Shown here: in pieces, positions 20,501 through 36,375 of the stretch
Layout: the number at the start of each line of letters is the position of its first letter
Numbering within the stretch: position 1 is the first letter of the stretch
Assembly: GCA_963798085.1 (NCBI GenBank)
Contig: CAWCRS010000007.1
Coordinates: forward strand, 736,001-800,000
Origin: an uncultured Gemmatimonadales bacterium
Lineage (GTDB): Bacteria > Gemmatimonadota > Gemmatimonadetes > Longimicrobiales > RSA9
Length of the DNA stretch: 64,000 nt
Reading direction: 5' to 3'
Notes under the pieces: model-generated
Told to the model about the DNA's origin: nothing
The model's input: the letters and a program-made list of their open reading frames with translations, nothing else
The model's database searches: none
Made by a program: the position numbers and the translations under genes

Positions 20501-20694
20501 GGCACCTCGAGCTGACGCGGAACACGGAGGGCGAGCAGAAGCTGGAGCGCGCGCTGGACGCGGTGGCGCAGCACGTACGGGCCGCGCGTGCCGGTGAGTT
20601 CCCCGCTGATCCGGCGCCCTCGTGCAAGTGTCCGACGTTCTGTCATGCGTGGGAGATCTGTCGCGTGCGCGGTGGGCCGCAGGCGAAATGGTGA
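17527..20694 (+). CDS. addB: AddB-like subunit: inactive helicase scaffold plus RecB-family PD-(D/E)xK nuclease with Fe-S cysteines
   Basis: ERIAVVAR, FDHVFLVGM, WSPTQLESYAKCP, RGSLLHDAL, LRGTIDRVD, IDYKT, LQVPLY, C-terminal CKCPTFCHAWEIC; no Walker A seen. Confidence 0.8.
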   Translation: MARLRLVLATDPWLLLEDAADAFLSPAPASPAVPFPSPPFLLALRQGGLRDDLIAMAAARGVRGWFDPPLCLFSQLPELLGVTRAACGDYERLVLLASVLRSAAPRVFSRLSRPDAFVDALDRLFGELAGEGVTADALPGALARAGRDAFEINRDADLAAAYDAYLAALAAQGLRDDRARWIDAAAAVRNDAPGLARRLGQRRELRLFGLQDLRAGWRTLLEALRASPALDAITVHTSAPLHTDEALDADVVTVLDDTSSLARRLFTVRDAPFQATTPRLEIFSSPDAEREAEQVAVRVRALLDGGAPPERIAVVARSARPWVDLVLDALAHCGVSATARRRHSFASIPVVRSVLSLFAVARDGWPRHGLVELAEQPYLGIDLDATVLNYIGYRRRVEGLDDWMAAHERLLAEVEARERKHADDDAEPDRRRMSLPPGWRVRRAVEAFRRFAGFARPLDSARPLHAWLDWLLALLGADTRVEDDASLPAQAWDVARHVYDAPDGCEDVVRLDAAGLRGAQSVIAEWRRALERWRDVAPLSVAGFAGRLQSMLSGDAALWTRARRSVQVLEGLAAAHRAFDHVFLVGMAGGRFPLPMPRSPILGEIERARLASVLPLDTSERWDTRERELFRVLVAGARASLTVSWPRLDERGGETVPSAFLEELLDVAGALPLDLPTHEVRTMGVPLIADAAAVPLALHAATIEGERATGRLSPWNGLITNTALRAALGERLGPEYVWSPTQLESYAKCPWAWFSARLLHLEKLSDPDVDIDPRARGSLLHDALRRFFDSARERFGRPVFLLPGDLDAWARTLLHESLETALAAVADEVWLGQPALRLTKRAELRRMLDRFLEGEAEYNEKLLDRPHWTYTRTLRMAAAAHELAFDELRIRAGGEMLRLRGTIDRVDVSCDDRVAAADCVAAIDYKTTKWSTPGSGEGLAWSDGVVLQVPLYAEALLQLRPGSRVARVAYRAIRSRDLVHKLDLLEVKGSRGHLELTRNTEGEQKLERALDAVAQHVRAARAGEFPADPAPSCKCPTFCHAWEICRVRGGPQAKW

Positions 20695-23600
20695 GCGGAA
20701 CGTCCGCGCGCACCGGTGCGGCTGGCGGGTTCCGGCCGCCCACGCCATCGCAATGGGAGGCGATCGCGGCGACCGACGACCACCTGCTGGTCGTCGCCGG
20801 CGCGGGCACTGGCAAGACGCACACGGTCGTCGGTCGCGTGCTCTATCTGCTGGGCGTACCGATCAACGAGCAGACGTACGCGCGGCCTGTCGGCCTGCCG
20901 CAGATCGCGGCCATCACCTACACGAAGGAAGCGGCACGCGACCTGAAGCAGCAGCTGCGCGACGATCTGCGCGCCGCGGGCCGGCGCGAGCTGGCCTGGC
21001 AGGTGGACCTCGCCCGTATCGGCACCATCCATTCGTTCTGCGCCGAGCTGCTGCGCGAGCATGCGCTGCGCGCGGGCGTGGCGCCGGCTGACACCGTACT
21101 GGAAGAGGGCGAAGCACTGGAGCTGGCCACACAAGCAGCGCGCGACGCGCTGGTCGCTGCGCTCGGGCAGGGCGGCATTGCCGGACTGGACGCACTGCTG
21201 GGCGACCGGCGTACCAGTGATATCGACCGCTGGGTGGTCGACCTGATGCGGAAGCGCGATCTGCTGCGCGCGCTGCACGACCGCTGGCGCGACGCCGACG
21301 TCGGCAGTGAAGCCGACGCGCCCACCACCGAGGAGCGCGCGCTGATTCTGCTGGCGAGCGCCGCAGCCGAGCGCTACGACCGCGTGCTGGCCGACAGCGG
21401 CCGCATCGACTACGACCACATGATCCACTGGACCCGCGACCTGCTGCACCGCGACGCGCACGTGCGGGCCGCTCTGCGGCAGCGGCTGCACACGCTGATC
21501 GTGGACGAATTCCAGGACGTGGACCCGATGCAGAAGGAGATCGCCTACGCCATCGGCGCCGTGGGCGAGGCCCGCGCGGACACGCCTCGCCTGATGCTCG
21601 TCGGCGATCCCAAACAGAGCATTTACAGATTCCGCGGCGCGGACGTCAGCTCGTGGAACAGCGTGCAGCGCGATTTCGAGGAGCAGGGCCTGGGCCGGGT
21701 GCTGCCGCTGCGCGAGAATTTCCGCAGCCTGCCACCCATTCTTGCCATGGTGGAAGCGTCGGTAGGCGCCGCCCTCGATCAGCCGATCGATGGCCAGGCA
21801 CTGCGTGACTACGAGGTGCCATTCCTGCCGGTTGCTGCACAGCGTGCGTCAGCGGAAGCGACCGCGGTCGAGTTCCTGCTGGTCCCGGCCAATGCGGCCG
21901 GCAAGAGCCGCCGGGCGGACGACGTACGCGTGGTCGAAGCCCAAGCGATCGCGGAGCGCATGCGGCAGCTGCACGCGGATCGCGTTCGTTTTTCCGACAT
22001 GGCGCTGCTCTTCGCCACGTGGACATCGGTGCAGATCTATCAGGATGCGCTGCGGCGCGTGGGCATTCCCTTCTACACGCTGCGTCGCGACGGCTTCCTC
22101 GACACCCGCGAAGTCCACGATCTGGTGCTGGCCCTGGAAGTCGTGCGCGACCCGACCGACGAGCGCGCGTTGTTCGGCTTCCTGCGCAGCCCGTTCATCG
22201 GTGTCAGCGACGAGACACTGCTGCGCGTGGCCGATCGCAAGCGCCGGCCTTCGTGGCGACACCTGTGCGACGTTGATGCCGACGCCGCCGGCGAGAGCGG
22301 CGCGATGGAAAGCGCGGAAATGGAGCGGCTTGCCTTCGCGCAGCAGCTGCTGGACCGCTACACGCGGTTGCGCGACCGGCTGTCCAGCGCGGAACTGCTC
22401 GACGCGCTGCTGCGCGAGACGGGCTTCCTTGCGCATCTCCAGCTGCGAGGCGAGGCGGGCAGTCAGGCGCTGGCCAACGTGCGGCAATTCATCGGACTGG
22501 CGAGGGCCACGCCCGACGTGAGTGTGGGCGATTTCATCCGCATCCTGCGCGAGCAGCGGGAGCGCGGCGATCGCGTGCCGGAAGCCATACTGTACGCCCG
22601 CGACGACGAGGTCGTCACAATCACGTCGATCCACGTGGCGAAGGGTCTGGAATGGCCGGTCGTGTTCTGGGCGGATCTGTCGCGCGGGCCAGTCACATTC
22701 TCCAGCAAACTCGTGGTTGGTCGCAGCGAAATACGACTGGGCGAGCCCGACATCGACGCGGATGACCAGCCGGATCCGCGCTGGGGCGCGCTGCGCATGA
22801 GCGTGATCGACGAGGAGTACGCAGAACACAAACGCCTGGCTTACGTGGCGGCTACGCGGGCGCGCGACCGCCTCATCCTGTGTGGCATACCGATGGGAGG
22901 CACCGGTAGCGGCAGGGACAAGCCGCCGAGCGACAGACGGCGCGAACCGATCGCGAAGCTGTTCCTGTCGCGTTTCCCGCAGCTGGCGAACGCGCGGTCC
23001 GGTGACCTGGTGGAATTCGCGGGCCGCGATACGGAAGGCGAAGCGCGTGCCCGGAGGCACGCGGCCCTCGTGCACGTGGCGACGCCATCCGAGCCGGCGC
23101 CGGCGTACCGGCCACCCAACCGCCTGTTTGGCCAGACCACGGAGGAAGCGCCGCAGCCCTGGCCCACGCTCGATCCGGCAGCCATCGAATTGCCGCTCGA
23201 ACCCGTCGCGGCCGCTGCGGGTCCGCCCCGCCATTCGGCCACCGAGTTCCTCACCTACACGCGCTGCCCTCGGCGGCACTGGTTCAAGTACGTGGTCGGC
23301 ATTCGTGAGCCGCCGCTGGCCGCTGCCGAGCGAGATGCGCTGATCTCGGCCGTGCAGCGCGGGCAGATCGTGCACGATGTGCTGGAGCGTTTGCGCGAGG
23401 AGGCGGACCTCGACAGCCTGCTCGAGGATGCCATCGGCCGCTGGGACGAGAACGCGCCAGCGCCCGAGTCGGACCGCGGGTCCGCGTATCGGGCGCACCT
23501 GCGGGACGAAGTCAGCCGGGTGGTCGAGCACCCTGACTACATTGAGTTAGCCAGCCGCCCGGGGGCGCGCCACGAGCTGCCCTTTCTGTACGTCGCCGCG

Positions 23601-24446
23601 GATGGCGTGGCGGGGCAGGGCAGCATCGACCTGGCGGTCCCGGACACGGACGCCGCCGGGGCGCCGGGCATGACGCTCCTCGATGTGAAGACCACGCAAT
23701 GCGACGCGGCGGGCGCGCGCCTGAAGGCAGAGCAGTACGCGCCGCAGCGCGACGTGTACGTGACTGCCGCGACGGCAATCGCGGGTCTGCCCGTGCACCG
23801 CTTTGCGTTCCAGTTCACGCGCGCCGCCGTGCAGCTCACGCAGGACATCGACGCGTCGGGCCGCGCCGCCGCCGCAGGGCGCTTCGCGGAAAGCGCGCGT
23901 CAGATTGCAGAAGAGCACGCGCCCTTGACGCGCTTTCCGCAGGAATGCCGCTTCTGCGGTTATCGCAAAGTGCGCCTGTGTCCCGGCGCGCGCTTCGATC
24001 CACCCGGCCTGGATGATCTGTTCGCACGCCTGGCGCGCGATCGCTTCCGTTCCGGCTTCAGCCTGCAGGCCAGGGAGCGCGCGTATCTGCAGACGCATGG
24101 CATCGACAGCGTGCTGGAGCAGGCGAGGCGTTTCGTGCAGCAGCGGCTGGCGCCCGCGTCGCCGGCGCGCGATGGCCGGCAGACGCCCTGGCGAGGGCAC
24201 CCCGTGTTCGTGGCGCAGCACGGAACCGCGACCTGCTGCCGCTCGTGCGTGGAGCGCTGGCACGGGATCAGTCGCGGCGTGGCGCTCACCACGGAACAGC
24301 AGGAGTACGTGCTGCGCGTCATCGAACGCTGGCTGCGCGCGCAGGCGGAGACATCGGCGGGGACTGCCGACGACTCCGCCACGGCAGGCGATGATGCCAC
24401 GCGCGGCAGACGAGCACGCGACGGCTCACAGCTCGAGCTGCTCTAG
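20688..24446 (+). CDS. addA: AddA-like UvrD/SF1 helicase-nuclease with C-terminal DUF4186-like domain
   Basis: AGAGTGKT, VDEFQD, VGDPKQSIYRFRGAD, ENFRS, SIHVAKGLEW, YVAATRARD; nuclease GSIDL..DVKT..QRDVY; CPRRHW...CRFC...C; tail GRQTPWRGHPVFVAQHGTATCCRSC. Start overlaps the addB stop. Confidence 0.85.
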   Translation: MVSGTSARTGAAGGFRPPTPSQWEAIAATDDHLLVVAGAGTGKTHTVVGRVLYLLGVPINEQTYARPVGLPQIAAITYTKEAARDLKQQLRDDLRAAGRRELAWQVDLARIGTIHSFCAELLREHALRAGVAPADTVLEEGEALELATQAARDALVAALGQGGIAGLDALLGDRRTSDIDRWVVDLMRKRDLLRALHDRWRDADVGSEADAPTTEERALILLASAAAERYDRVLADSGRIDYDHMIHWTRDLLHRDAHVRAALRQRLHTLIVDEFQDVDPMQKEIAYAIGAVGEARADTPRLMLVGDPKQSIYRFRGADVSSWNSVQRDFEEQGLGRVLPLRENFRSLPPILAMVEASVGAALDQPIDGQALRDYEVPFLPVAAQRASAEATAVEFLLVPANAAGKSRRADDVRVVEAQAIAERMRQLHADRVRFSDMALLFATWTSVQIYQDALRRVGIPFYTLRRDGFLDTREVHDLVLALEVVRDPTDERALFGFLRSPFIGVSDETLLRVADRKRRPSWRHLCDVDADAAGESGAMESAEMERLAFAQQLLDRYTRLRDRLSSAELLDALLRETGFLAHLQLRGEAGSQALANVRQFIGLARATPDVSVGDFIRILREQRERGDRVPEAILYARDDEVVTITSIHVAKGLEWPVVFWADLSRGPVTFSSKLVVGRSEIRLGEPDIDADDQPDPRWGALRMSVIDEEYAEHKRLAYVAATRARDRLILCGIPMGGTGSGRDKPPSDRRREPIAKLFLSRFPQLANARSGDLVEFAGRDTEGEARARRHAALVHVATPSEPAPAYRPPNRLFGQTTEEAPQPWPTLDPAAIELPLEPVAAAAGPPRHSATEFLTYTRCPRRHWFKYVVGIREPPLAAAERDALISAVQRGQIVHDVLERLREEADLDSLLEDAIGRWDENAPAPESDRGSAYRAHLRDEVSRVVEHPDYIELASRPGARHELPFLYVAADGVAGQGSIDLAVPDTDAAGAPGMTLLDVKTTQCDAAGARLKAEQYAPQRDVYVTAATAIAGLPVHRFAFQFTRAAVQLTQDIDASGRAAAAGRFAESARQIAEEHAPLTRFPQECRFCGYRKVRLCPGARFDPPGLDDLFARLARDRFRSGFSLQARERAYLQTHGIDSVLEQARRFVQQRLAPASPARDGRQTPWRGHPVFVAQHGTATCCRSCVERWHGISRGVALTTEQQEYVLRVIERWLRAQAETSAGTADDSATAGDDATRGRRARDGSQLELL

Positions 24447-24459
24447 TCCGGAGGCAGAC

Positions 24460-25572
24460 ATGGCAATCACGAAACTGCAGCGCTGGCTCGATCTGGTCGC
24501 ATTTCTCGTGAGCCGGCGCATGCCCGCCACATTCGAGGAGATCATTGAGCACGTGCCGGCGTACAGCGGCGCAGGCTCCGGCGACATGCGCGCCGGCGAG
24601 TCGGTGCGGCGCATGTTCGAGCGTGATAAGGACGAGTTGCGCGCAATGGGCATACCGCTGCAGACAGTGCCGTTCAGCATCGGCTTCGGCAGTGAGGCGA
24701 TCGAAGGCTACGCCATCGACAATCGCGACTTCTACCTGCCGTGGCTGCGTCTGGTCGAGCAGCTCTCGCCCGGAGGTCAGTACGCGGATCGCAACCGTAC
24801 AGGCGAGGTCGAGATCACACCGGCGGAGGCGCCGCTCGTCCTGGAAGCGCTGCGCCGCGTGTCGCAGCTGCCGGCGTCACCGCTGGCCAGAGAGGCGAGG
24901 TCGGCGTTCCGCAAGCTGGCTTTCGATCTCGATCCGGATGCGTTCGCCGCCGACTCGCCGGTGCTGTTCGTCGAGCGACCGGAAGCAGAGGAGCTGGTCG
25001 AACGCCTGCGCATGCTTTCCGATGCGCTGCTCACGCGCAAGCGTGTGGCCTTCACCTATCACGGCATTTACAGAGGCGAAGACACCGATCGCAGCGTGCA
25101 GCCGTACGGCCTGCTGTTCCAGGAAGGCCACTGGTACCTGGTGGCGCACGACGCCGAGCGCGAGGCGGTGCGCGTGTTCCGCGTCGGCCGCATGGACGCA
25201 CTGCGCGTGAATCCGCGCGCTCCACACACGCCCGACTACGAGATACCGGCCGGGTTCAAGCTGGATCCATGGGTGGGCCGCAAGGCATGGGAGCTGGGCG
25301 ATCTCGAGGAGAAGCCGATCGAAGCCGATGTGCGCTTCCGCTTCCCGCGCTCGCTCTGGGCGGAGCGCAACGGACACGGCGCGCTGGTACGCGAGCTGGA
25401 GGGCGGCGACACGGTGCGACGATTCCGTGTCTATCAGGTAGGCGCGTTCCTGCGCTGGCTGCTGGGACTCGGTGGTGAAGCCGATGTGCTCGAGCCGGCC
25501 GAACTGGCGCAGCAGTTCCGCGAGCTGGCTGCGGATGTGGCCCGCATTCACGGTGGAGGCGATGATGCCTGA
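24460..25572 (+). CDS. pafB: PafB-like HTH-WYL-WCX transcriptional regulator
   Basis: RRMFERDKDELRAMGIPL (PafB-type wHTH), VQPYGL, GHWYLVAHD, RVFRVGRM, VLEPAEL; RBS ggagg. Confidence 0.85.
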   Translation: MAITKLQRWLDLVAFLVSRRMPATFEEIIEHVPAYSGAGSGDMRAGESVRRMFERDKDELRAMGIPLQTVPFSIGFGSEAIEGYAIDNRDFYLPWLRLVEQLSPGGQYADRNRTGEVEITPAEAPLVLEALRRVSQLPASPLAREARSAFRKLAFDLDPDAFAADSPVLFVERPEAEELVERLRMLSDALLTRKRVAFTYHGIYRGEDTDRSVQPYGLLFQEGHWYLVAHDAEREAVRVFRVGRMDALRVNPRAPHTPDYEIPAGFKLDPWVGRKAWELGDLEEKPIEADVRFRFPRSLWAERNGHGALVRELEGGDTVRRFRVYQVGAFLRWLLGLGGEADVLEPAELAQQFRELAADVARIHGGGDDA

Positions 25573-26728
25573 GCCGGCACAGGTTCGCCTCGAACGCCTG
25601 CTGTATCTGCTGCCCGCCGCGGCGCGCGACGGCGGCGCCCGCCTCGATGAGCTGGCGCGCGCGCTGGACGCATCCCCAGCCGATCTGCTGCGCGACATCC
25701 AGGAAGCCACGGCCCGCGCTTTCTACTTGCCGCCCGGCCAGGCCGATTCCATCCAGATCACCATCGAAAAGGATCGCGTGCAGGTCTTTGCCGGGCGCCA
25801 GTTCCAGCGGCCTGTCCGGCTCTCGCAGCGGGAAGCGCTCGCGCTCGGCCTCGGCCTGCGCATCATGGCCGCCGAGCGCGAAGACGCGGCCGGTCGCAAC
25901 ACACTGTTGGCGCTGGCCTCGCGCATGGAGCAGTCGCTGGCCGTGCCCATGGTGCGCGAGGCGCCACGCGCCATGCCCGGCGCCCCCGTCCCGGCCGAAG
26001 AAGCCGCGCCGTACGGCGCAGCCGAAGATCTGGCACCGCCGCCGTCTTTGCAGGCGCCGCGCTTTCCATTTTTCGCCCGTCCCTCGCCGCCGGCCCGCGA
26101 GCGCCAGTCCGCAGCGGCAGGTGGCATCGGCACGCCGCCGCCCATTGTGCTGCACATCGAGCAGGAGCGCGGTCCGGTCAAGGTGGAGCTGGGTGAGGAC
26201 GCGTTCCGCGGCATCATGGCCGACGGCGTGCGCGAGCACCGCCGGGTAACACTGAGTTATCTGAGGCCCGGCGCCCGTGCGCCGGAACCGCGTACGGTCG
26301 AACCGCTGCGCCTGGTCTACGCCAACGGTCGCTGGTACCTTGCGGCGCAACCGGTACCGGGAGACGAGCCGCGCATCTACCGCCTCGACCGCGTGCTCGG
26401 CGCGCGTCTCGAGGCCGAACATTTCGAGCCCGGCCCGATCGACATCAGCAGCTTCATTGATGAGGCCGGCCGCGCGTACAGCGCGCGCGACGCGGTGGTC
26501 GCACAGGTTCGCTACTCGCCTCGCGTCGCCCGCTGGGTCAGCGAGCGCACGCGCCAGGCGGCCTCGCCCGACGGCAGCATCACCGTCGAGCACAGCGTGG
26601 CTGACCCGGACTGGCTGGCGCGCCACGTGCTGCAGTACGGCGCCGACGCCGAAGTTGTCGGGCCGCCGTCACTCCGCGAACACGTCGCATCCATTGCACG
26701 GTCACTCGCATCTCACCGCGGAGATTGA
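25565..26728 (+). CDS. pafC: PafC-like HTH-WYL-WCX transcriptional regulator
   Basis: RLERLLYLLP, RPVRLSQREA, VEPLRL, GRWYL, RIYRLDRV, VLQYGADAEVVGPPSLR; ATGCCTGA overlap with pafB. Confidence 0.85.
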   Translation: MPEPAQVRLERLLYLLPAAARDGGARLDELARALDASPADLLRDIQEATARAFYLPPGQADSIQITIEKDRVQVFAGRQFQRPVRLSQREALALGLGLRIMAAEREDAAGRNTLLALASRMEQSLAVPMVREAPRAMPGAPVPAEEAAPYGAAEDLAPPPSLQAPRFPFFARPSPPARERQSAAAGGIGTPPPIVLHIEQERGPVKVELGEDAFRGIMADGVREHRRVTLSYLRPGARAPEPRTVEPLRLVYANGRWYLAAQPVPGDEPRIYRLDRVLGARLEAEHFEPGPIDISSFIDEAGRAYSARDAVVAQVRYSPRVARWVSERTRQAASPDGSITVEHSVADPDWLARHVLQYGADAEVVGPPSLREHVASIARSLASHRGD

Positions 26729-26783
26729 GAAGGGCTCGGAGAACGGAGTTCTTGTTTTGTTGCTTACCGCGGAGAACGGGGAG
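26712..26783 (+). repeat. 72-bp REP-like repeat (two ACCGCGGAG cores), left copy
   Basis: Ungapped match of about 48/72 nt to the reverse complement of 35035-35106 (counted by hand). Confidence 0.7.
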
Positions 26784-26792
26784 TTGAAATGC

Positions 26793-26891
26793 GAAGGCCA
26801 ACCTCCTGATCGGTCGCGGCGTAGCGGCAGGCGCTCGCCAGAAGAGTTGACCGTGACGGACCCGGAGGTCCCGAAACCAGGAGGTTGGCCG
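26793..26891 (+). ncRNA. IS110 left-end structured leader (bridge-RNA-like region)
   Basis: Perfect 13-bp inverted repeat ggccaacctcctg(26796-26808)/caggaggttggcc(26878-26890) occluding the transposase RBS; inner stem gtcgcgg/ccgtgac; directly upstream of the IS110 ATG. Confidence 0.65.
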
Positions 26892-27320
26892 ATGTTGATC
26901 ATCAATTTAACGATTGGGCTGGATGTGGGCGATCGGAAGAGCGTGACGTGCGAAGTGGATGGCGCGGGGTGCGTGGTGAAGCGGGCGACGGTGGCGACGA
27001 CGGAGGTGGGGTTGCGGGCGTATCTTGGCGAGCGTGCGCCGTGTCGTGTGGTGATGGAAGCGGGGACGCATTGGCCCTGGGTGTCACTGGAGTTGAGCGC
27101 GCTGGGGCATGCGGTGGTGGTGGCGAATCCGAGCGCGGTGTGTGGGCGGGCAGCGACGCAAGAAGCGCATTGACGCGCTGGATGCGGAGTATCTGCGAGG
27201 CAGGGCCGTGTGGCCGTGGCGTTGTTGCACCCGATCTGCCATCGGGGGCCGGAAGCGCAGGCGCATTCTGGGGGTGGTACGCACGCGGGATCGCTGGTGC
27301 GGGCACGCACGAAGCAGCAT
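26892..27320 (+). pseudogene. Truncated, frameshifted IS110-family transposase (N-terminal DEDD/RuvC part)
   Basis: TIGLDVGDRKS, VVMEAGTHWPWVS, VVVANP, then KKRIDALDAEYL and LLHPICHRGPEAQA...LVRARTK in other frames; C-terminal domain absent. Confidence 0.85.
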
Positions 27321-27392
27321 AGCTTGCCGTATCTGAGGAAGAAGGAGCACGACTCGCCGCGTGAGCAGCTGCAGGCAGGGAGGGAGAACACG

Positions 27393-27839
27393 ATGCCGTG
27401 TGAATCGCAGGGCTACCAGGTCAACGGCGGTCAACGGAAGGCAAACAAGAAGGCGGCTGGCTCCGTCACCAAGACTGGCGGCACTGATAGCGATCATGCG
27501 GAAAGGGTAGCATACAGGGGGTTCGGCAGCACGACCGACGTCCTCTTCTTGATCGTCCAGGATGCATTCCCCTGCTTTGATCGGGTGCCATCAGTACTTC
27601 CTCCAGCAGTCGACGAAGGGTTACAGCATCATTATCAAGGTGACGGCCGACAGCACCTACGACCGTGGTTCCTATTTTCCCAGGGGAACGCCCATAACCC
27701 TACCGTACTACATCTTCTCTCACGGCGGCCAAGCCACGCTTTCGCCGCACCCGCCGGTGCCACCTGTCGGTTTCCCGCGCACCCGGCCAGCTATCGGATT
27801 GATCACGATCGCGCTGCGCCCTTCGAAGGAGGCGAGTGA
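27393..27839 (+). pseudogene. Putative zinc-dependent nucleic acid/nucleotide deaminase, frameshifted
   Basis: DHAE...QDAFPCFD. Removing one G of ggg (27583-27585) gives PCFDRCHQYF and an HAE...PCxxxC motif. RBS gggaggga. 3' end uncertain (27839 or 27891). Confidence 0.6.
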
Positions 27840-27842
27840 GGA

Positions 27843-28526
27843 ATGGACAGGCATTACGTGCTGGTGGTGTCCGGCTTGCGTGACCAGGTGACCGAGGCGG
27901 AAATGTGGGTGGACGTAATGAACCGAGCCGGAAAAAGGTATCGGCGGATCACGTGGGCCGGGGTGCGCGACCTAAGTAGGCGTCGGAACGGCTTCGAAGA
28001 CGGGGATGTGATCTACATTCTGACGCACGGTAATTACAATGCCGAGACAGATATTGCGACCGGCACCATCGAGATGGACGGCGATAAGGGACAGGCAGAC
28101 AAGCTCGCGAAAAAGATCGCGGCCTGTCAGGTGCCAAAGGACGCAGCGATCAAGCTGAAGATCTTCGCCTGTTTGTCCGCCGACGAGCCGGAGCTCAACT
28201 CGAAGAGCTATGCCCAGCAGCTCCGGGTCGAGCTATGCAAACGCGGCTACCATCGAATGATCGTGTACGGCTACAGAGGTGAGACGAAGGCCCTGGCCTG
28301 GGGACAGCACAAGGCAGCCGGCGTGGCGTTGCATTCACCCATGGGAACCGAGCAGCCGGAGCCGGACGACACGCTCGAGACGTGGCGGTATCACGCGAGC
28401 CACCCGGACAATCGAACCGAACACCGGTGCGGCAATGACCGTCAATGCCCGCACACAGGCGACAAGATGGGCGGCCTCAGCAAAGCACCGCGGCGACAAA
28501 AGTCCGTGGGGTTCAATCCTTACTGA
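27843..28526 (+). CDS. Putative C80/caspase-hemoglobinase-fold cysteine protease
   Basis: IYILTHG (His62), IKLKIFACLSA (Cys110), then SYAQQL...VYGYRGE, matching the CPD/C80 layout. Confidence 0.6.
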   Translation: MDRHYVLVVSGLRDQVTEAEMWVDVMNRAGKRYRRITWAGVRDLSRRRNGFEDGDVIYILTHGNYNAETDIATGTIEMDGDKGQADKLAKKIAACQVPKDAAIKLKIFACLSADEPELNSKSYAQQLRVELCKRGYHRMIVYGYRGETKALAWGQHKAAGVALHSPMGTEQPEPDDTLETWRYHASHPDNRTEHRCGNDRQCPHTGDKMGGLSKAPRRQKSVGFNPY

Positions 28527-28967
28527 AGTGATCGCATTGGAGCCGCTCGTTGGCATGAATTCGTCCGACCATTGGCAACGACGACGACCTCGCGCACGAG
28601 GTGGCGGCTCCCGGTTCAGAGTGCCAAGGCACCCACGTGCGCTTGGCGAGGGCGCGGCCGCAACGGGAAGCGGTCGCCGACGCGGTGGACCGAGGTCTCG
28701 GTCTACCTCACGACGGGCGGTAACCTGGTGCTGCACGTCGGCGGCTACTCGAGCATCTAGGGCGAGCGAAGCCGCAACGCGGCGGCCGTCCATGATAATG
28801 CGGCGAGCGCGCTGATCTGGCTGCTCGAGCAGTCTGGCGGCGAGCTCGGCCGCGTGTCGAAGGATGCTTGACAGCAGGCCTGCTCCATCTATCCACCGCT
28901 CGGACAAGAAGCAACGGAGCGAGTACAATGAGTCTGGCGCGCTTGCGATCCAAAGGGAGCCCAACCA

Positions 28968-30641
28968 GTGACCATTCCGCCTGAAGAAGCGTTCAAGGAA
29001 CGACTGGGCTTGCACGAGCTACTTGGCTTTTGGCCATCCTGGGAATTCGTCGACGCTCGCTTGGCACGGTTACCACTCGGATTTGTGCTCGACATCCTCG
29101 GCCGCATTAGCATGCTCCTGTATCACAGACCACAACAAGCAAATGCAGGAGTGCTAACGGCGTTGTTTGGCGACGGCAGTCCAGTTCTGAAGGCCCTCCA
29201 CAAAGCAGGGCCGGATTCCGTTACGGTATTCGACGAGATTCTGACAATCAACGCCACTAAGCGTGCGCTAATGGTGTGCCCCCGCGGCCGACCGCTTGAG
29301 TTGGACGCGCCGAAGATCTTAGGTACGGCTCTCCTGGCAGTGGGTGGGCTTATTGACAGGGAATTTGTAGTCGCGCCAGCGATCGCAAGGAAACCGGCTG
29401 GTCGAAGCAGGAGCAATGCACATCTCTTGGCCAACGGCTTGTTCAATCGACCGAGCGTGGAAAGACACGAGGAGGCGCGCGCCTACTTGCTTTATCTGCG
29501 GGACCACGACGACCCGCGACACAGTCCATTTTACATGAACCTCCCGCAGCGCCTGCAGAACATTTCCGGACTGGATTCGATCACTTTTCTGTCGATCCTG
29601 CACTCGGTTTCGTCCTTGTGGCGAGGACGGCAGCAAATCGCTCTAATTAACACGGGGTCGGTTTTCGATAGATCTCACTTTCAGCGAAGTCTCTCGCTAT
29701 CGGATGATGACCTTCAACAGTACCTAGGCGTAGTCAGTCAGTCGCTGGACAGTGCAGTTGCAACGGCACACGCCCTCCATGGTGCGGCTGAATGGTCGAC
29801 ATATGATCGCATTTATCTAGCGAAGCATCCCGTGTTAGATGATGGACAACGGATCTATTGTCCCTCGGTGAAGTTGTTGTCAGAAAAACTCACTACTGGT
29901 CTTCATCACGTATTCTTGGCACCGGACAACGGTCTAACAGAGGACCAGCGGAAGCAATTTCTCGATTTCATGGGCGCTGTTTTCGAGAAGTATGTTGTCG
30001 ATGCTCTACCGGGCGCCTTCCAAGGAACCGTTATGATGGAAAGGGATCTTCAAATCAGACAGTCGGATCGCGTGTGCGATGCCGCGATTCTGAGTGGCTC
30101 CGGTCTGATTCTTCTTGAGGTAAAAGCTGGGTTGCTTCCGGCTGATGCGGTGGCTGGGCGCTCCTGGGATGTCTTTCGGCGAAAGGCGACGCAGACGGTT
30201 GTCGAAGCGGCCGCTCAGATATCGGCTACAGTTGACTCCGTGCAATCGGGCGCATTGGAAGGACGCGGCATCGCTCGGGACGTAGCTCCTATCATTCCAC
30301 TTGTCGTTACGTTAGAGCACTTCCCGATTACGCCGGCAATGTATGATGAACTCGACGCCGATATTCGGGGTCAAGGAATGCTCAGGCAAACAAACGTATT
30401 GCCATGGCAGCTCATGAATGTCTCGGACCTTGAGGTTTGCGAGGGGTGGCGAGCAATCAATGAAGATCCCGTGCAGGTGGTGCTGAAGCGAGCGTTGCAT
30501 AGGACCGGTCCGAAATACCCATTCTCTAATTATCGCTGGGCTCACCATCCGGAAGTCGGTGAAGCATTTAGTCCGCGACTGAACGTCGCGTGGAATGAAA
30601 TCGTCAGACTCATTTCCGGGTACAATTCCGGGAGGCCATAA
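28968..30641 (+). CDS. Hypothetical 557-aa protein with C-terminal PD-(D/E)xK (NERD-like) nuclease
   Basis: MGAVFEKYV...VCDAAI...ILLEVKAG; long uninterrupted ORF in DNA visibly more AT-rich than its flanks. Confidence 0.7.
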   Translation: MTIPPEEAFKERLGLHELLGFWPSWEFVDARLARLPLGFVLDILGRISMLLYHRPQQANAGVLTALFGDGSPVLKALHKAGPDSVTVFDEILTINATKRALMVCPRGRPLELDAPKILGTALLAVGGLIDREFVVAPAIARKPAGRSRSNAHLLANGLFNRPSVERHEEARAYLLYLRDHDDPRHSPFYMNLPQRLQNISGLDSITFLSILHSVSSLWRGRQQIALINTGSVFDRSHFQRSLSLSDDDLQQYLGVVSQSLDSAVATAHALHGAAEWSTYDRIYLAKHPVLDDGQRIYCPSVKLLSEKLTTGLHHVFLAPDNGLTEDQRKQFLDFMGAVFEKYVVDALPGAFQGTVMMERDLQIRQSDRVCDAAILSGSGLILLEVKAGLLPADAVAGRSWDVFRRKATQTVVEAAAQISATVDSVQSGALEGRGIARDVAPIIPLVVTLEHFPITPAMYDELDADIRGQGMLRQTNVLPWQLMNVSDLEVCEGWRAINEDPVQVVLKRALHRTGPKYPFSNYRWAHHPEVGEAFSPRLNVAWNEIVRLISGYNSGRP

Positions 30642-30876
30642 GAGAGCAGACAATTGAGCGGTCGGCCTGACGGTGGCTGGAAGATCCCGACTACGCGGGA
30701 TCGCTCCATCCACGGCGATAGGAACACTTTGATTTCCGCCAAGCGAATTCTGCTATGGCTCCTACGGCCGCGGGCATCATTGTCCGAGTTGCCTCTTCTG
30801 ATCGCTCGACAACAAGGGTCGGTGTCGGCGTGGCCCCCCGCGGATCCGACAACGTGGCCGATCTGCTGCAGAGTGT

Positions 30877-32031
30877 CTGGTACTAACTTGCCCAAGATCG
30901 CGTTATCATGTAGATAGGGGTCCACAGTATTCACTCCTCGCGGAGCGAGCACCATGGGCCGGGCGACCGAGATCGTATTGACGGTGCAGCAGCGGCAGAC
31001 GCTGGAAGCGTGGAGCCGCAGCAAGGTCATGGAGTTTCGCTATGTGGAGCGCGCTCGCATCATCCTCAATGCGGCGCGCGGGGACAGCACGAGCGCGATT
31101 GCGCGACGGCATCAGGTGCGCCCCGCGACCGTGAGCAAGTGGCGGCTTCGTTTCGCGGCGCAGGGTGTGAAGGGCCTGGACGACGCGGCGCGGACGGGGG
31201 CGCCAGCCGCCTACGACGAGGACACCGAGCGGCGCATCCTGGCGCAACTGGATGAACCGGCGCCGCGCGGTTTTGCGCAGTGGAACGGGCGGTTGGTGGC
31301 GGAAACGCTGGGCAATGTGTCGCAGGCCCACGTCTGGCGGGTACTGCGCAAGCACCAGATCCAACTGCAACGGCGCCGGAGCTGGTGCATCAGCACGGAC
31401 CCCGAGTTCGGTCCCAAGGCGGCCGATATCATTGCGCTGTACCTGAACCCACCCGAAAACGCGATCGTGCTGAGTATCAATGAAAAGCCGCACATCCAGG
31501 CTCTGGAGCGGGCTCAGGGCTACCTGCGGCTGCCGAATGGCCGCGCGATCAGCGGCTTCAGCCACGACTACCAGCGTCACGGAACCACCACGTTGTTCGC
31601 TGCCCTCAATGTGTTCACGGGTCAGATCAGGGCCGGGCACTACCAGCGCCGCCGCCGCCGGGAATTCCTCCACTTCATGAACGAGGTTGTCGCGGACTAT
31701 CCGGCCGACGTGGAGATCCATGTGATCCTGGACAACCTGAGTACGCACAAGCCCAGGCACGACCACTGGCTCGCACGGCACAAGAACGTCCACTTCCACT
31801 ACACTCCCACCCACGCCAGTTGGATCAACCAGGTGGAATTCTGGTTCAGCATCATGGCGCGCGCGGCACTTCGGGGCGCCAGCTTCACATCACCGGAGCA
31901 GGTCCGCGAAGCCATCAATGCATTCGTCGCCGTCTACAACCCCCGGGCCACGCCCTTCGAATGGCGCAAGGAAGTCGTACACCCGGTGCCGCTCAAGCAC
32001 CGTTACGCTGACTTGTGCAAGTAAGAACTAG
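30877..32031 (+). mobile_element. IS630-family insertion sequence
   Basis: Imperfect terminal IRs CTGGTACTAACTTGCCCAAG and reverse complement CTAGTTCTTACTTGCACAAG, flanking the transposase. Confidence 0.85.
30954..32024 (+). CDS. IS630-family transposase with first catalytic Asp replaced by Asn
   Basis: STDPEFGPKAADIIALYLNPPENAIVLSINEKP, YQRHGTTTLFAAL, ILDNLSTHK, HYTPTHASWINQVE. Confidence 0.92.
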   Translation: MGRATEIVLTVQQRQTLEAWSRSKVMEFRYVERARIILNAARGDSTSAIARRHQVRPATVSKWRLRFAAQGVKGLDDAARTGAPAAYDEDTERRILAQLDEPAPRGFAQWNGRLVAETLGNVSQAHVWRVLRKHQIQLQRRRSWCISTDPEFGPKAADIIALYLNPPENAIVLSINEKPHIQALERAQGYLRLPNGRAISGFSHDYQRHGTTTLFAALNVFTGQIRAGHYQRRRRREFLHFMNEVVADYPADVEIHVILDNLSTHKPRHDHWLARHKNVHFHYTPTHASWINQVEFWFSIMARAALRGASFTSPEQVREAINAFVAVYNPRATPFEWRKEVVHPVPLKHRYADLCK

Positions 32032-32159
32032 GGCGCGGCTTGAGATCATTGTTCCCTGGCAACATGGGCGGCGAGCGCCGAAGCGGCTGAGCTAGTCGAA
32101 GAGATACTGATTGTGCAACCGCAATGAACGGTCTGGCCAGCCGTTTCGTAACCGCAGCC

Positions 32160-32510
32160 ATGAACATTCTCAGTGACCATCAGCTAGCATATCTGCTCGA
32201 GTCGGCGTTCCTTGTATTCTTCGCAGTGGGGTTGCTGAAAGATCTGCGCGATCGACGTCGGGCACGAGCCTCGAGCATAAAGGCGGTGGTAACGCGCGGT
32301 GAAAGGAGCTTTGGTCACATCGCGTCCGCTTTCGCAGCGGGAGTGTTCCTAATCAACTTTATCGTCACGCAGACAGACGCGTTCGGGAGCTACAGACTTG
32401 CAGTGGCCACGTTTGACTTCGCCGCTTGGGCCTGGGCCAGCTTCCTCTTTGGATGGTGGCGGAACAGGGTCGTCAGCTTCATGGACGGCCTCCACCGAGA
32501 CAACCACTGA
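32160..32510 (+). CDS. Hypothetical small membrane protein
   Basis: Three hydrophobic segments; alternative start at 32124. Confidence 0.5.
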   Translation: MNILSDHQLAYLLESAFLVFFAVGLLKDLRDRRRARASSIKAVVTRGERSFGHIASAFAAGVFLINFIVTQTDAFGSYRLAVATFDFAAWAWASFLFGWWRNRVVSFMDGLHRDNH

Positions 32511-32562
32511 GGATTGACACAGAAGGGCTTTTGGCGTGAGATGTCCGAGCAACTCCGCGCGA

Positions 32563-32673
32563 CTGGATTTACCGCGCACATTCGTTGGCTTCAGTAGTAC
32601 AGACATCCGAAGCTAGAGATTGATGCTGGCTTGGAAGGCCAACGAAAAGATCGATTTCAACTTCTGCGACTGC
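32563..32673 (+). pseudogene. Relic of the N-terminus of a ThsB/MTH538-like TIR-domain gene
   Basis: LPRTFVGFSSTDIRS*RLMLAWKANEKIDFNFCDC with internal TAG at 32614-32616; similarity ends abruptly. Confidence 0.6.
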
Positions 32674-32740
32674 GATCCGCGCCCTGACCCGACCCTGAGG
32701 TCGCCGCGGGAGTTGGCAACGTACAATGCGCGGAACGGAC

Positions 32741-32876
32741 ATCCGCTTGCACCGGCGCCGTTGAGAGCGCCTTCGAAGAGTGCGGATAGAAGAGTGGTCC
32801 GGGGGCGCGTGCCGACCTTGGTCGGCTGGAGTCCACCACGTTGGACCCTTCACACCGAGTGCCTTCTCATAGACGG
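32741..32876 (+). mobile_element. Putative IS110 right-end non-coding region
   Basis: Stems atccgc/gcggat with inner ggcgc/gcgcc and internal loops, plus hairpin gccgacc/ggtcggc. Ends gccttctcataGACGG versus left-end GAAGG. Resemblance to IS110 right ends is from memory. Confidence 0.45.
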
Positions 32877-33096
32877 GCGCTGAGGACGTCGGAATCCTTA
32901 CCCGGAAGCGGGGAGCGAGTGGGGGGCTGGTGGCGTGGATTGTGGCGGGGACTTTCGTGACGCATTGTACGGACGTGGAAGGGTCGGGGCGCCGCGTGTT
33001 GATCCGGCCACTGTGTCCGTGGCGGCCCCTGTGTTGAAGGATGCGTTCCCATGCTGGACATCCGATCCAGAGCTGCGACGCGGGAGGAGTGCGACA

Positions 33097-33492
33097 ATGG
33101 CGGTGAAGGCGGCGACACATCTCATGTTCGAAGGCGATGCGACGGCGGCGCTCGAGCTGTATGGGGCGGTGTTCCCGGCGTTCCGGGTGGAACATGTGGA
33201 GCGTTACGCGGCGGGTGAAGCCGGTGCGGAAGGGACCGTGAGGCTGGCTTCGGCTTCGCTGGGCGGGCACGCGCTCATCGTCATCGACAGTCCGGTGAAG
33301 CACGGTTTCACGTTCACGCCGGCAATGTCGCTGTTCGTCGAGTGCGAAAGTGCCGAGGAACTGGACGCGGCCTTCGCCACGCTTTCTGCGGGCGGCCAGG
33401 TCTTCATGCCGCTGGACAACTACGGCTTCAGCCGTCGCTTCGGCTGGTGCAGCGATCGCTTTGGCGTGTCGTGGCAGCTCAACCTCGCCTGA
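33097..33492 (+). CDS. VOC/PhnB-like (3-demethylubiquinone methyltransferase-like) protein
   Basis: THLMFEGDA, FTFTPAMSLFVEC, MPLDNYGFSRRFGWCSDRFGVSWQL. Confidence 0.9.
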   Translation: MAVKAATHLMFEGDATAALELYGAVFPAFRVEHVERYAAGEAGAEGTVRLASASLGGHALIVIDSPVKHGFTFTPAMSLFVECESAEELDAAFATLSAGGQVFMPLDNYGFSRRFGWCSDRFGVSWQLNLA

Positions 33493-33600
33493 GCGGCGGT
33501 GGCGCCTGTCCGAATGCACAGTCGTGTCCGTCCGGCGTGACCTGCGTCCTGTGCTGCGGCCAGCCATGAGGCGGGCAGGCCGGCAACGAGCATCAGGCGC

Positions 33601-34344
33601 GTGATCAAACGCCCTCGCGGCCTGCTCTTCGACTACGGTGGCACGCTGGTCGAGGAGGTTGCGTTCGACAGGCGGGCGGGCATCGAGCTGCTGCTCGCGC
33701 ACAGCGTGGAGCGGCGCGCGGGCGTCAGCCCCGACGAGATCATCGAGCGCGCCGAGCGCGTGACGCGGGAGGTGGCCGATCGTCGCGATCAGCTCGGCAT
33801 CGAGACGCCGTGGGCTTCCCTGACGCGGCTGATTCACGACTATTTCGGGACCCGGTTCGATGCTCCACTGGCCGAGCTGGAACTCGCGTTCTGGAACGCG
33901 GCCGTGCAGACCCGGCCAATGCCGGGTGTGCGCGAGGCGCTCGACGCATTCCAGCGCTCCGGCATCGCCATGGGTGTGGTGAGTAACACCCTGTTCGGGC
34001 ACAACGTCATACGACACGAGCTCGCGAAACACGATCTTGCCGACTACATGGCTTTTGTCATTGCCTCCGCCGATTACGCGGTACGCAAACCGGATCCGCT
34101 GCTGCTCGAGGTCGCCGCGGCGCGACTGGGTGTGCCACGCAGTGAAGTGTGGTTCGTCGGCGACCGGCTGGACACCGATGTCAGAGGCGCGCGCGCCGCC
34201 GGCATGACGGCCGTCTGGTTCGGACCGGACGCCGGGACGCAGCACCCGGACGCAGACCTGCACGCTGCCACGTGGGGCGACGTCGCCGGCATGGTCCGCG
34301 CAGCCGCAGCCGCGGTGAGCCCGACCGTGGCACCCGTGCCGTGA
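33601..34344 (+). CDS. HAD-superfamily hydrolase
   Basis: LLFDYGGTL, VVSN, RKPDP and FVGDRLDTDVRGA. Confidence 0.88.
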   Translation: MIKRPRGLLFDYGGTLVEEVAFDRRAGIELLLAHSVERRAGVSPDEIIERAERVTREVADRRDQLGIETPWASLTRLIHDYFGTRFDAPLAELELAFWNAAVQTRPMPGVREALDAFQRSGIAMGVVSNTLFGHNVIRHELAKHDLADYMAFVIASADYAVRKPDPLLLEVAAARLGVPRSEVWFVGDRLDTDVRGARAAGMTAVWFGPDAGTQHPDADLHAATWGDVAGMVRAAAAAVSPTVAPVP

Positions 34345-35034: not shown

Positions 35035-35106
35035 CTCCCACCACTCCGCGGTGAATCAACCCCCCAAAACGCCGTACTCCGCGCCCTCCTCCCACTCAGC
35101 GGTCAG
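35035..35106 (-). repeat. 72-bp REP-like repeat, right (inverted) copy
   Basis: Reverse complement ctgaccgctgag...gggcgcggagtacggcgtt...ttcaccgcggag...gggag aligns with 26712-26783. Confidence 0.7.
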
Positions 35107-36375
35107 CGTTGTTTCCGGAGAACGCGTGAGATGAGACTGCTCTTCGCGGACTGTGCGACGCGGGCATTGTGCGCGCGCTGGTACAGGTACTTCGCATCCC
35201 GCTCGCCGACTTCGAGCGATGCGAACTGCTGCGCCATTTCCTGCAGGTCCTGCTGCTCTTCTTCCAGCCCCGCGTCCGTATAGGGAGATGCGGCGAAGCA
35301 CGCGAAGCTCGCGTGCAGCGCGCTGGCGGCCGCGGGCGCGTCGCCGGCACGGTAGTGCTCGATCGCCTGCTCCCGTGCCCGTGCCGCGTCGAGATAGAGC
35401 ATCTCCTTGCGCACCTCCGGATCAATGCGCGGACCGTCGGCCAGCGAGATGCTGAGCGGCAGGCGGATGTCGGATTGCGCGATGCCGGCTGCGGCTACCA
35501 CCTGTGCACTCACGACAATGTCCGCGAGCAGCACGGCATCCCGGGTATCGCCGGTCGACTGCAGTCTGAATTCGATCAGCAGACTGCGGGGCTCACGCAC
35601 GTAGAGATCGCCAATGTCGAGCCGCAGCACGCGTCCCTGCGTGGTGCGCGGATAGCCGTGGTGCACGGCAACGAGCTGCGCCGCAGGCGAGGGATCGATG
35701 GTGACGGCGAGGTTCTGGGCGCAGAGAATGGAGCAGGCCTTCGGCTTCGTCGGCAAAGATGCCCGCCGCCTGATCGGGCTTCTCGATGTAGTAGAGATTG
35801 CCGCCACCAGCCTCGGCCATGGCGCGCAGCAGCGACTCGTCGTAATCCTCGCCGAAGCCGATTGCCGTAGTCGAGATGCCGTTCTCCCGCGCGCTCGCGC
35901 ACATCCCCACGAGTGAGGGGGCATCCGTGATGCCGACGTTCGCCAGGCCGTCGGTCAGCAGCAGGATGCGGTGTGCGCCGGACTGGCCGCGCGCACGCGC
36001 CACCAGCTCGCGGCCCCGCAGCCAGCCGCCGCTCAGGTTCGTGGACCCGCCGGACTCAATGCGTTCGATGCGCTGCGCCAGATCCTGCTGCGCAGTGCCC
36101 GTGGCCGGCTCGGCTACCGTCGCAACGTCCTGATCGTAGGCGACGACACTAACCACGTCTTCGGAGCGCAGCCTGCGCACCAGCATGGCCGCCGCCTGCC
36201 GCGCCGCCTCCAGCTTGGGGCCCGCCATGGAGCCGGAGCGGTCGAGCACGATCGCCAGGTTGACCGGCGCGCGACCGCCGGCGGGTGGTGCTTCGCCTTC
36301 AATGCGCAGCAGCGCGCGGATGGTGTGCTGGCCGGGGGCGGGGACTTCGTCGTCCAGGAGAATCGTGGTCTTCAT
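35103..36375 (-). CDS. vWA-domain protein, with a +1 frameshift near 35730
   Basis: VLDRSGSM MIDAS, GGSTNL, LLTDG, GFGEDYDE; continues as LCAQNLAV... in ORF 35103-35924; RBS ggagg. Confidence 0.85.

Follow-up and report, generated by a model that had tools for sequence, protein, structure and literature searches.

Putative IS1111-group relic with accessory cargo in place of the 3' half of its transposase in a Gemmatimonadota genome

Introduction

Members of the IS1111 group of the IS110 family of insertion sequences (ISEc11, ISKpn4, ISPa11) carry a DEDD recombinase gene and sub-terminal inverted repeats, with a short left end and a long right end that holds target guides, donor guides and a -35 box (PMC11208160, PMC11187229), and their layout of short leader, gene and long 3' non-coding end is described in PMC11208160. 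We analyzed a 64,000-nt stretch of DNA (the window) from an uncultured Gemmatimonadota bacterium (assembly GCA_963798085.1, contig CAWCRS010000007.1), in which a 6,094-bp element shares these features with the IS1111 group. It differs from the group in that its transposase is truncated and frameshifted, its ends are mutated and 5.3 kb of cargo lies inside.

Natural cargo-expanded IS110 loci, in which defence genes are about 2-fold enriched, have been reported by Hu et al. (bioRxiv 10.64898/2026.08.14.744561). Kilobases of foreign cargo in IS110 ends, in-place stepwise growth, defence genes in the cargo and a donor-like sequence at an internal boundary are traits that our element, as we read it, shares with those loci. 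In contrast, cargo here replaces part of the transposase, whereas theirs adds to the element; the donor-like match here spans both core sides (3+2+7 nt) and is inverted; and evidence of mobility is absent. Because their pipeline required both transposase domains, left out single-domain insertions and accepted lineages only at 95% or more of the coding sequence, an element such as this would be excluded from that survey; their supplementary figures may hold comparable cases.

A second comparison is ISPpu9/ssr9 of Pseudomonas putida, an IS110-family, REP-targeting (repetitive extragenic palindromic) system in which transposase-less units can use the transposase in trans (PMC12288879). The ssr9 module exists in several copies, gives rise to circles and shares its genome with a helper, whereas the element here is single-copy with no helper found. 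In our partial coverage of the literature, made by title, no natural IS1111 element with cargo replacing the transposase was described.

Results

The two ends

We found support for both ends of the locus belonging to one IS1111-group (IS110 family) element. The same intact relative (L213; related loci are given L labels and genomes G labels) was the best of the listed matches in both cases, at 75% over 507 nt for the left end with the transposase and at 83% over 208 nt (from about 32666) for the right end, so that the right end has similarity within the same IS110 subgroup, as the initial annotation had supposed. Scores of the left and right parts across kin were rank-correlated (rho 0.85; 23 of 26 kin, the three without the motif being dropped). 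The 6.2-Mb source assembly contains a single match to the bridge RNA and a single fragment of a cognate transposase; the two lie 5.3 kb from each other and are correctly oriented.

The kin came from a transposase protein search of 401 phylum genomes, the source genome included (41 matched), a right-end motif scan of GTDB genomes (at least 120 loci, of which 80 have long flanks) and a tighter right-end scan of metagenomes (13 loci). They are mutually related and motif-picked, and statistics across kin are not independent.

The right end contains a bridge (seek) RNA region at 32663-32804 (all features described are on the + strand unless noted). A covariance model built from 28 kin, with the window excluded, matched 32653-32804 at 88.6 bits (E 6.6e-22), and the element was its sole match among 150 scored candidates in the source genome; in an unfiltered nhmmer run on that genome, the element gave E 2.5e-19 and the next candidate 0.42. 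The right-target guide (32676-32685) and left-target guide (32705-32712) lie in variable RNA loops, and the donor guides are at 32741-32747 (degenerate) and 32785-32792 in the bridge-RNA region. Downstream are a decayed -35 box, TTCACA (32849-32854; TTGAC in 43 of 54 kin right ends), and a block at 32861-32875 made up of the right sub-terminal repeat (32861-32870), a 3-nt extension and the core position (32874-32875), which is CG here. With the bridge RNA in the right end, the subgroup is IS1111.

The initial annotation had placed a structured right end at 32741-32876. Homology confirms an IS110-family right end there, so it is identified by homology rather than by folding energy, which is at chance level for 32741-32876 (z -0.18). 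Its structure is not unusual, and since the right non-coding end begins at about 32663, the earlier start missed the target-binding loop. With the DNA as query, the 401 phylum genomes yielded a single clear outside match, at 97% over 34 nt of the 3' non-coding end of L029, the relative ranked second by its transposase. Among the 80 listed loci with long flanks, 72 have a homologous transposase upstream, three have too little upstream sequence, and five have 6.6-8 kb upstream but no transposase match; L087, L096, L105, L135 and L136 hold right ends or parts of the bridge RNA and lack a transposase match over that upstream distance.

At the left end, the core dinucleotide AG (26782-26783) is positioned as in intact kin, and the sub-terminal inverted repeat (26789-26798) is complementary to the right repeat at 9 of 10 positions. 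The leader (26796-26890), similar to those of kin, forms a 13-bp stem that would sequester the transposase ribosome-binding site (26796-26808/26878-26890; z -4.5, 0 of 200 shuffles). This hairpin had been noticed at initial annotation and stands; the accompanying GAAGG/GACGG, once read as recombination core or termini, is ruled out in that role by the kin alignments.

As first proposed, a decayed IS110 transposase follows, of which the 5' 141 codons remain (26892-27315, IS1111-type; PF01548 E 3.2e-7, NF033542 E 3.5e-10). The fragment is 58% identical to the L213 protein over residues 5-141, with homology ending at about 27315, and it carries about four single-base indels and a stop at 27171-27173. 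Its C-terminal domain is missing, and Transposase_20 (PF02371) had no match at the element locus. The short left end (110 nt) and long right end (about 210 nt) agree in form with the best transposase relatives, whose gene of about 345 codons follows a short leader and precedes a long 3' non-coding stretch; intact L213 weakly matches the IS621 (E 5e-4) and ISCro4 (E 7e-5) structures.

That the ends are unrelated relics bracketing the island by chance, or that the right end is not IS-derived, is highly improbable. An Rfam scan of 26000-34000 gave zero matches up to E 5 and the folding energy is ordinary, as that reading would have it; against it, both parts share their nearest relative, a model that had not seen the window scored 88.6 bits, and the guides are complementary to the flanks.

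Boundaries and target

In intact kin, the left junction runs flank, AG, 5-6 nt and a ATGAGAAGG-type repeat, and the right junction runs repeat, 3 nt, AG and flank. By this rule, the element spans 26782-32875 (6,094 bp), compared with 1,419-1,507 bp for nine intact kin. It is flanked by the two parts of a REP-like repeat: the left part, with two CACCGCGGAG-type units, at 26714-26781 (the target left flank) and the right part at 32876-32888 (the target right flank). The REP anchor motif occurs 72 times in the source genome.

Both flanks were compared with the guides. The right flank matches the element's own guide at 6 of 7 positions; 38 of 54 kin, but only 66 of 2970 cross pairs, reach at least 6/7. 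For the left flank the score is 3/5 on the sequence as it stands and rises to 4/5 when a single additional G that none of the other aligned sequences has is discounted; 4-5/5 is found in 18 of 19 kin and 48 of 380 cross pairs. The ideal 14-mer defined by the guides has eight perfect genomic sites, all within the CACCGCGGAG-type repeat; the joined flanks differ from it by two mismatches (1042 genomic sites are equally close) and resemble an intact REP with a 9-bp period at G000:C3:114045 (G000 is the source assembly). An intact relative of 1,448 bp, L225, in a genome of the same family (G426), shares the left spacer and resembles the element in its right flank; in 60 family genomes no other RNA match was strong, and three were marginal.

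A candidate empty-type allele comes from soil run X2, which contains short pieces identical to the window. In the assembled contigs of runs X1-X4 the cargo had zero cover, to which we give no weight, and the ends of the element were likewise uncovered. One 151-nt contig of depth 2.2 joins 26739 to 32922, skipping 26740-32921, and its right piece (60 nt) has one difference; this contig supports adjacency of the flanks. Together with the shared nearest relative, the guide-flank matches and the continuity of the REP, it supports the earlier idea of one element whose transposase 3' half was swapped for cargo.

We consider it probable that a single IS1111 element inserted into a REP, that cargo replaced part of it in place, and that it then decayed to an immobile relic. 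Several points weigh against this history. The left guide match is under the usual kin score unless one base is discounted. The X2 contig is single, of low depth and matched at an 82% likeness threshold, and it has about 51 nt between the two sides where about 92 would be expected, so it is not an exact empty site. The VOC and HAD genes to the right of the element were not beside pafC in the regions examined from eight relatives. Indels occur elsewhere in the assembly (a split vWA gene, the IS630 siblings), and part of the decay could be sequencing or assembly error; a helper transposase could also be unassembled, the assembly being 90% complete. Finally, the repetitive nature of the target means that guides would match at either side even if two copies had inserted into separate REPs.

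This last point leads to a composite-like arrangement in which two IS1111 copies in neighbouring REPs flanked the cargo and separate deletions left complementary halves. With a dispersed repeat as target (the 72 anchors), both junctions would look right, and tandem or repeated copies do occur in kin L088, L107 and L113. We regard this origin as unlikely: it requires two deletions that took complementary parts and both inner REP halves; the cargo contains no REP half or second end, only two bare 7-mers; in the X2 contig only about 50 nt separate the outer flanks; and, as a weak further point, the pafC-vWA spacing in G009 is about 3 kb in the same orientation.

An integron-cassette origin of the cargo was rejected, the target here being a REP and a crude motif listing being without a cassette pattern. 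The more distant kin L030, L039 and L045 appear to sit just after sequences that we take to be attC-like.

Kin of other architectures were seen. Internal-deletion derivatives of the same family (L103, L152, L093, L094) are MITE-like (miniature inverted-repeat transposable element) candidates without cargo, and L103 is 493 bp from core to core with both ends kept. At L107:8001-8800 and L028, the right non-coding end is tandemly repeated, joined right after the terminal repeat, resembling the repeat units of Hu et al. At L116, an IS630-like element lies between an intact IS1111 transposase and its own bridge RNA.

Decay and mobility

The element is changed at several positions that are conserved in kin. 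The right core is CG (AG in 52 of 54 kin), and position 4 of the left repeat is C (A in 20 of 20 other left ends, gathered with a search pattern that allowed A or C only). The target-loop stem reads GCAAC (GCAGC in 83 of 94 sequences), and the left-donor guide diverges from kin. The predicted fold of the element RNA collapses, and L213 and L225 give two-loop folds, with energies insignificant in all.

Three other IS110-family genes are present in the source genome; two encode proteins 28-30% identical to the L213 protein and the third had no match. The two former represent a different IS110-family element whose 3' end is long (G000:C2:393000-394400 and C3:698100-699500); a left-end repeat matching that of the element was not found in them, but both carry the same right-donor guide motif as the element, and one abuts an apparent mrr-type gene. 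The third (G000:C2:1-1400, at a contig end) is low-GC with a long 5' leader and a 462-aa open frame, and looks foreign to the genome. As helpers, all three were rejected as belonging to different subgroups.

Mobilisation of a non-autonomous element in trans had been proposed at initial annotation, and we did not find it borne out. The element is a single copy (one match in the source genome, none in the relatives searched); the intact IS110 copies of this genome are not cognate, the 90%-complete assembly holding only proteins of 28-30% identity; and core, repeat and -35 box are changed. The element is therefore most likely an immobile relic.

We weighed whether the 6.1-kb unit (or a 4.9-kb unit before the IS630 arrived) moves or moved whole, drawing on a recombinase and bridge RNA encoded elsewhere. 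It retains its two termini in the right register, engineered cargo between ISEc11 ends moves when transposase and RNA are given in trans (PMC11187229), the empty-type allele fits arrival as a unit equally with stepwise growth, and two other IS110-family copies share the right-donor guide motif. Movement of the whole is nonetheless quite unlikely: besides the single copy, the lack of a cognate transposase, the CG core and the altered left repeat, the cargo genes were unmatched in the other loci compared, truncated recombinases were inactive in Hu et al. (10.64898/2026.08.14.744561), and a split transposase with cargo occurs in 0 of the 80 listed loci with long flanks.

Cargo

Cargo of 5.3 kb (27316-32662) stands in for some 700 bp of the element, which would have run from recombinase codon 142 up to where the bridge RNA begins. 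The GC content drops from about 68% to 54-63% across the element, and the cargo genes had no match in the other loci compared. The initial annotation listed deaminase, protease, nuclease, IS630, membrane-protein and TIR genes and called the cargo defence-like. Of these labels, IS630 and TIR are secure, that of the nuclease comes from a weak family match, that of the protease is no more than a lead and that of the deaminase depends on a motif only; at most two genes, one of which is broken, merit the term defence-like.

The first gene (27393-27839) is a frameshifted orphan with an HAE...PCxxC motif, which we take to be zinc-deaminase-like on that motif alone; it had zero Pfam matches. An intact paralogue (139 aa, 54% identity) is at G000:C2:346696-347115, outside such IS ends; used against 300 phylum genomes, this query did not recover it. 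Next is an open 227-aa orphan open reading frame (ORF; 27843-28526) with a weak Peptidase_C80-like lead (Pfam E 0.021, below the cut-off; top Atlas cluster 13% PF11713), whose homologue search returned only itself. A probable small pseudogene (28572-28931) has two in-frame stops and no family match.

The largest gene is an open, low-GC (55%), 557-aa nuclease-like ORF (28968-30641), GapS1/NERD-related at scores below cut-offs (NF047931 E 1.3e-12, 47 against 320 bits; NERD E 0.21), with one homologue beyond itself. An open 128-aa hydrophobic orphan ORF (32124-32510) had no homologue beyond itself. Single-sequence structure predictions (pLDDT 39 and 46) were uninformative, also for the deaminase-like gene. 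Since 912 codons of the three open ORFs (227, 557 and 128 aa) remain open beside about four indels in 141 transposase codons, selection or later arrival of these genes is suggested.

The IS630 copy (30878-32032) has three siblings at 98-99% elsewhere in the genome. Compared with the closest of them it has 11 changes, one of which hits the Asp of the DE motif (31479), and both of its ends are altered. The IS630 is thus a separate and ageing insertion. We presume the changed Asp to be catalytic.

Last in the cargo is a ThsB-type TIR gene stub (32563-32673), with no start codon, one stop and about 37 of about 170 codons. It is 70-78% identical to its nearest matches, and those scanned carry the ThsB TIR domain. 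In PADLOC, the stub alone was matched, and six other cargo ORFs were scanned without a match. The stub thus shares the TIR domain identity of Thoeris ThsB (PF08937; PADLOC ThsB1/ThsB2) but, in contrast to ThsB, is about 37 codons long with a stop and no start, and no ThsA was recognised nearby.

Right cargo joint

At the joint between cargo and bridge RNA, we found a 12-nt exact match (32654-32665, - strand) to the element's own reconstituted donor (circle) junction. It consists of 3 nt, the core and 7 nt, and was spotted post hoc. The 12-mer occurs once in the 12.5 million strand positions of the genome; a match of at least 12 nt is reached in 3 of 151,974 41-nt bins, which should include the joint itself and the left end, and in 1 of 7,139 low-GC bins. 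At the left cargo joint, the donor match is only 4 nt, which is chance level, and a recombinase signature there was ruled out.

That the joint was made by the element's own bridge recombinase, through cryptic half-sites, is a tentative reading that we hold slightly less probable than its opposite. It would have used a cryptic right-donor half-site in the foreign TIR gene and a cryptic left-donor half-site at the 5' start of the RNA gene, leaving a perfect 12-nt donor junction in the chromosome and deleting the transposase 3' half. Hu et al. (10.64898/2026.08.14.744561) report an enrichment of donor matches at the internal boundaries of expanded loci, and in assays of Sun et al. (10.1101/2025.10.25.684509) the donor site is rejoined upon excision, in one case with swapped junction order.

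The joint can also be explained by microhomology without a recombinase, because the three closest TIR homologues continue F-C-D-C across it and the same letters fit the RNA start, making the zone 32661-32673 compatible with both parents. A 6-nt overlap of similar kind is present in L152, a deletion derivative among kin.

Genomic context

The source assembly is 6.2 Mb in 12 contigs and 90% complete, and the window corresponds to C7:736001-800000. The element lies between a pafBC-like WYL gene pair and a VOC gene followed by a HAD hydrolase. Upstream, AddB/AddA-like helicase-nuclease genes and, immediately after them, the pafBC-like WYL genes occupy 17527-26728 of the window, and in G001 and G003 pafBC likewise adjoins an addB-like gene. 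A vWA gene at 35103-36375 (- strand) is split by a frameshift, whereas G009 has one 418-aa gene, so this is a true lesion or an assembly indel. In G009, some 3 kb separate pafC from vWA and their relative orientation is unchanged, as would be expected here minus the element, which is a weak indication. A 9-kb DNA search against 40 relatives returned WYL, IS630, VOC and HAD pieces only, and with a repeat finder terminal repeats of an informative kind were not found.

Discussion

Our reading of the locus starts with an ordinary IS1111-group element of 1.4-1.5 kb, which would have inserted by bridge-RNA-guided recombination into a 9-bp-period REP after the pafBC-like genes. Foreign DNA would then have replaced, in place, the roughly 700 bp between codon 142 of the recombinase and the bridge-RNA start. 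The likeliest route is that a larger foreign segment inserted into the transposase gene and that a subsequent deletion removed the 3' part of the TIR gene along with the transposase 3' half; the joint of that deletion, in a zone of about 13 nt, would fit either the cognate recombinase acting on cryptic half-sites or microhomology, at roughly even odds. The IS630 would have joined separately, and decay of the ends would have left the 6.1-kb unit as a small accessory island. The order of these events, the single insertion, the in-place replacement and the present immobility are what we infer from the arrangement, while the lost 700 bp, the identity of ends, guides and target, the cargo content, the independent IS630 and the decay are seen in the DNA itself.

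The element is most likely a fossil of an already described process and not a new mobile system, and its biological weight is small if it is simply dead, as is most likely. If the recombinase made the right joint, the locus would record, in nature, an IS1111-group element that captured cargo by RNA-guided recombination and disarmed itself in doing so, and inverted donor junctions would be predicted at the boundaries of other transposase-truncated cargo relics. Were the donor mimic causal, it would also be a case of natural off-target half-site recombination, which bears on the specificity of bridge-editing tools.

The intact kin have a use of their own. The 1.42-1.51 kb IS1111 clade comprises L225 (G426:C5, about 339930-341380), L115, L102, L122, L211, L216, L218, L221 and L222, and its guides track variants of 9-bp-period REP-like repeats; this REP-targeting clade is a natural guide-target covariation set with readable pairs. 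Beside these intact relatives, the locus described here clearly illustrates, in a natural setting, how an insertion sequence guided by RNA can turn into a small accessory-gene island and die.

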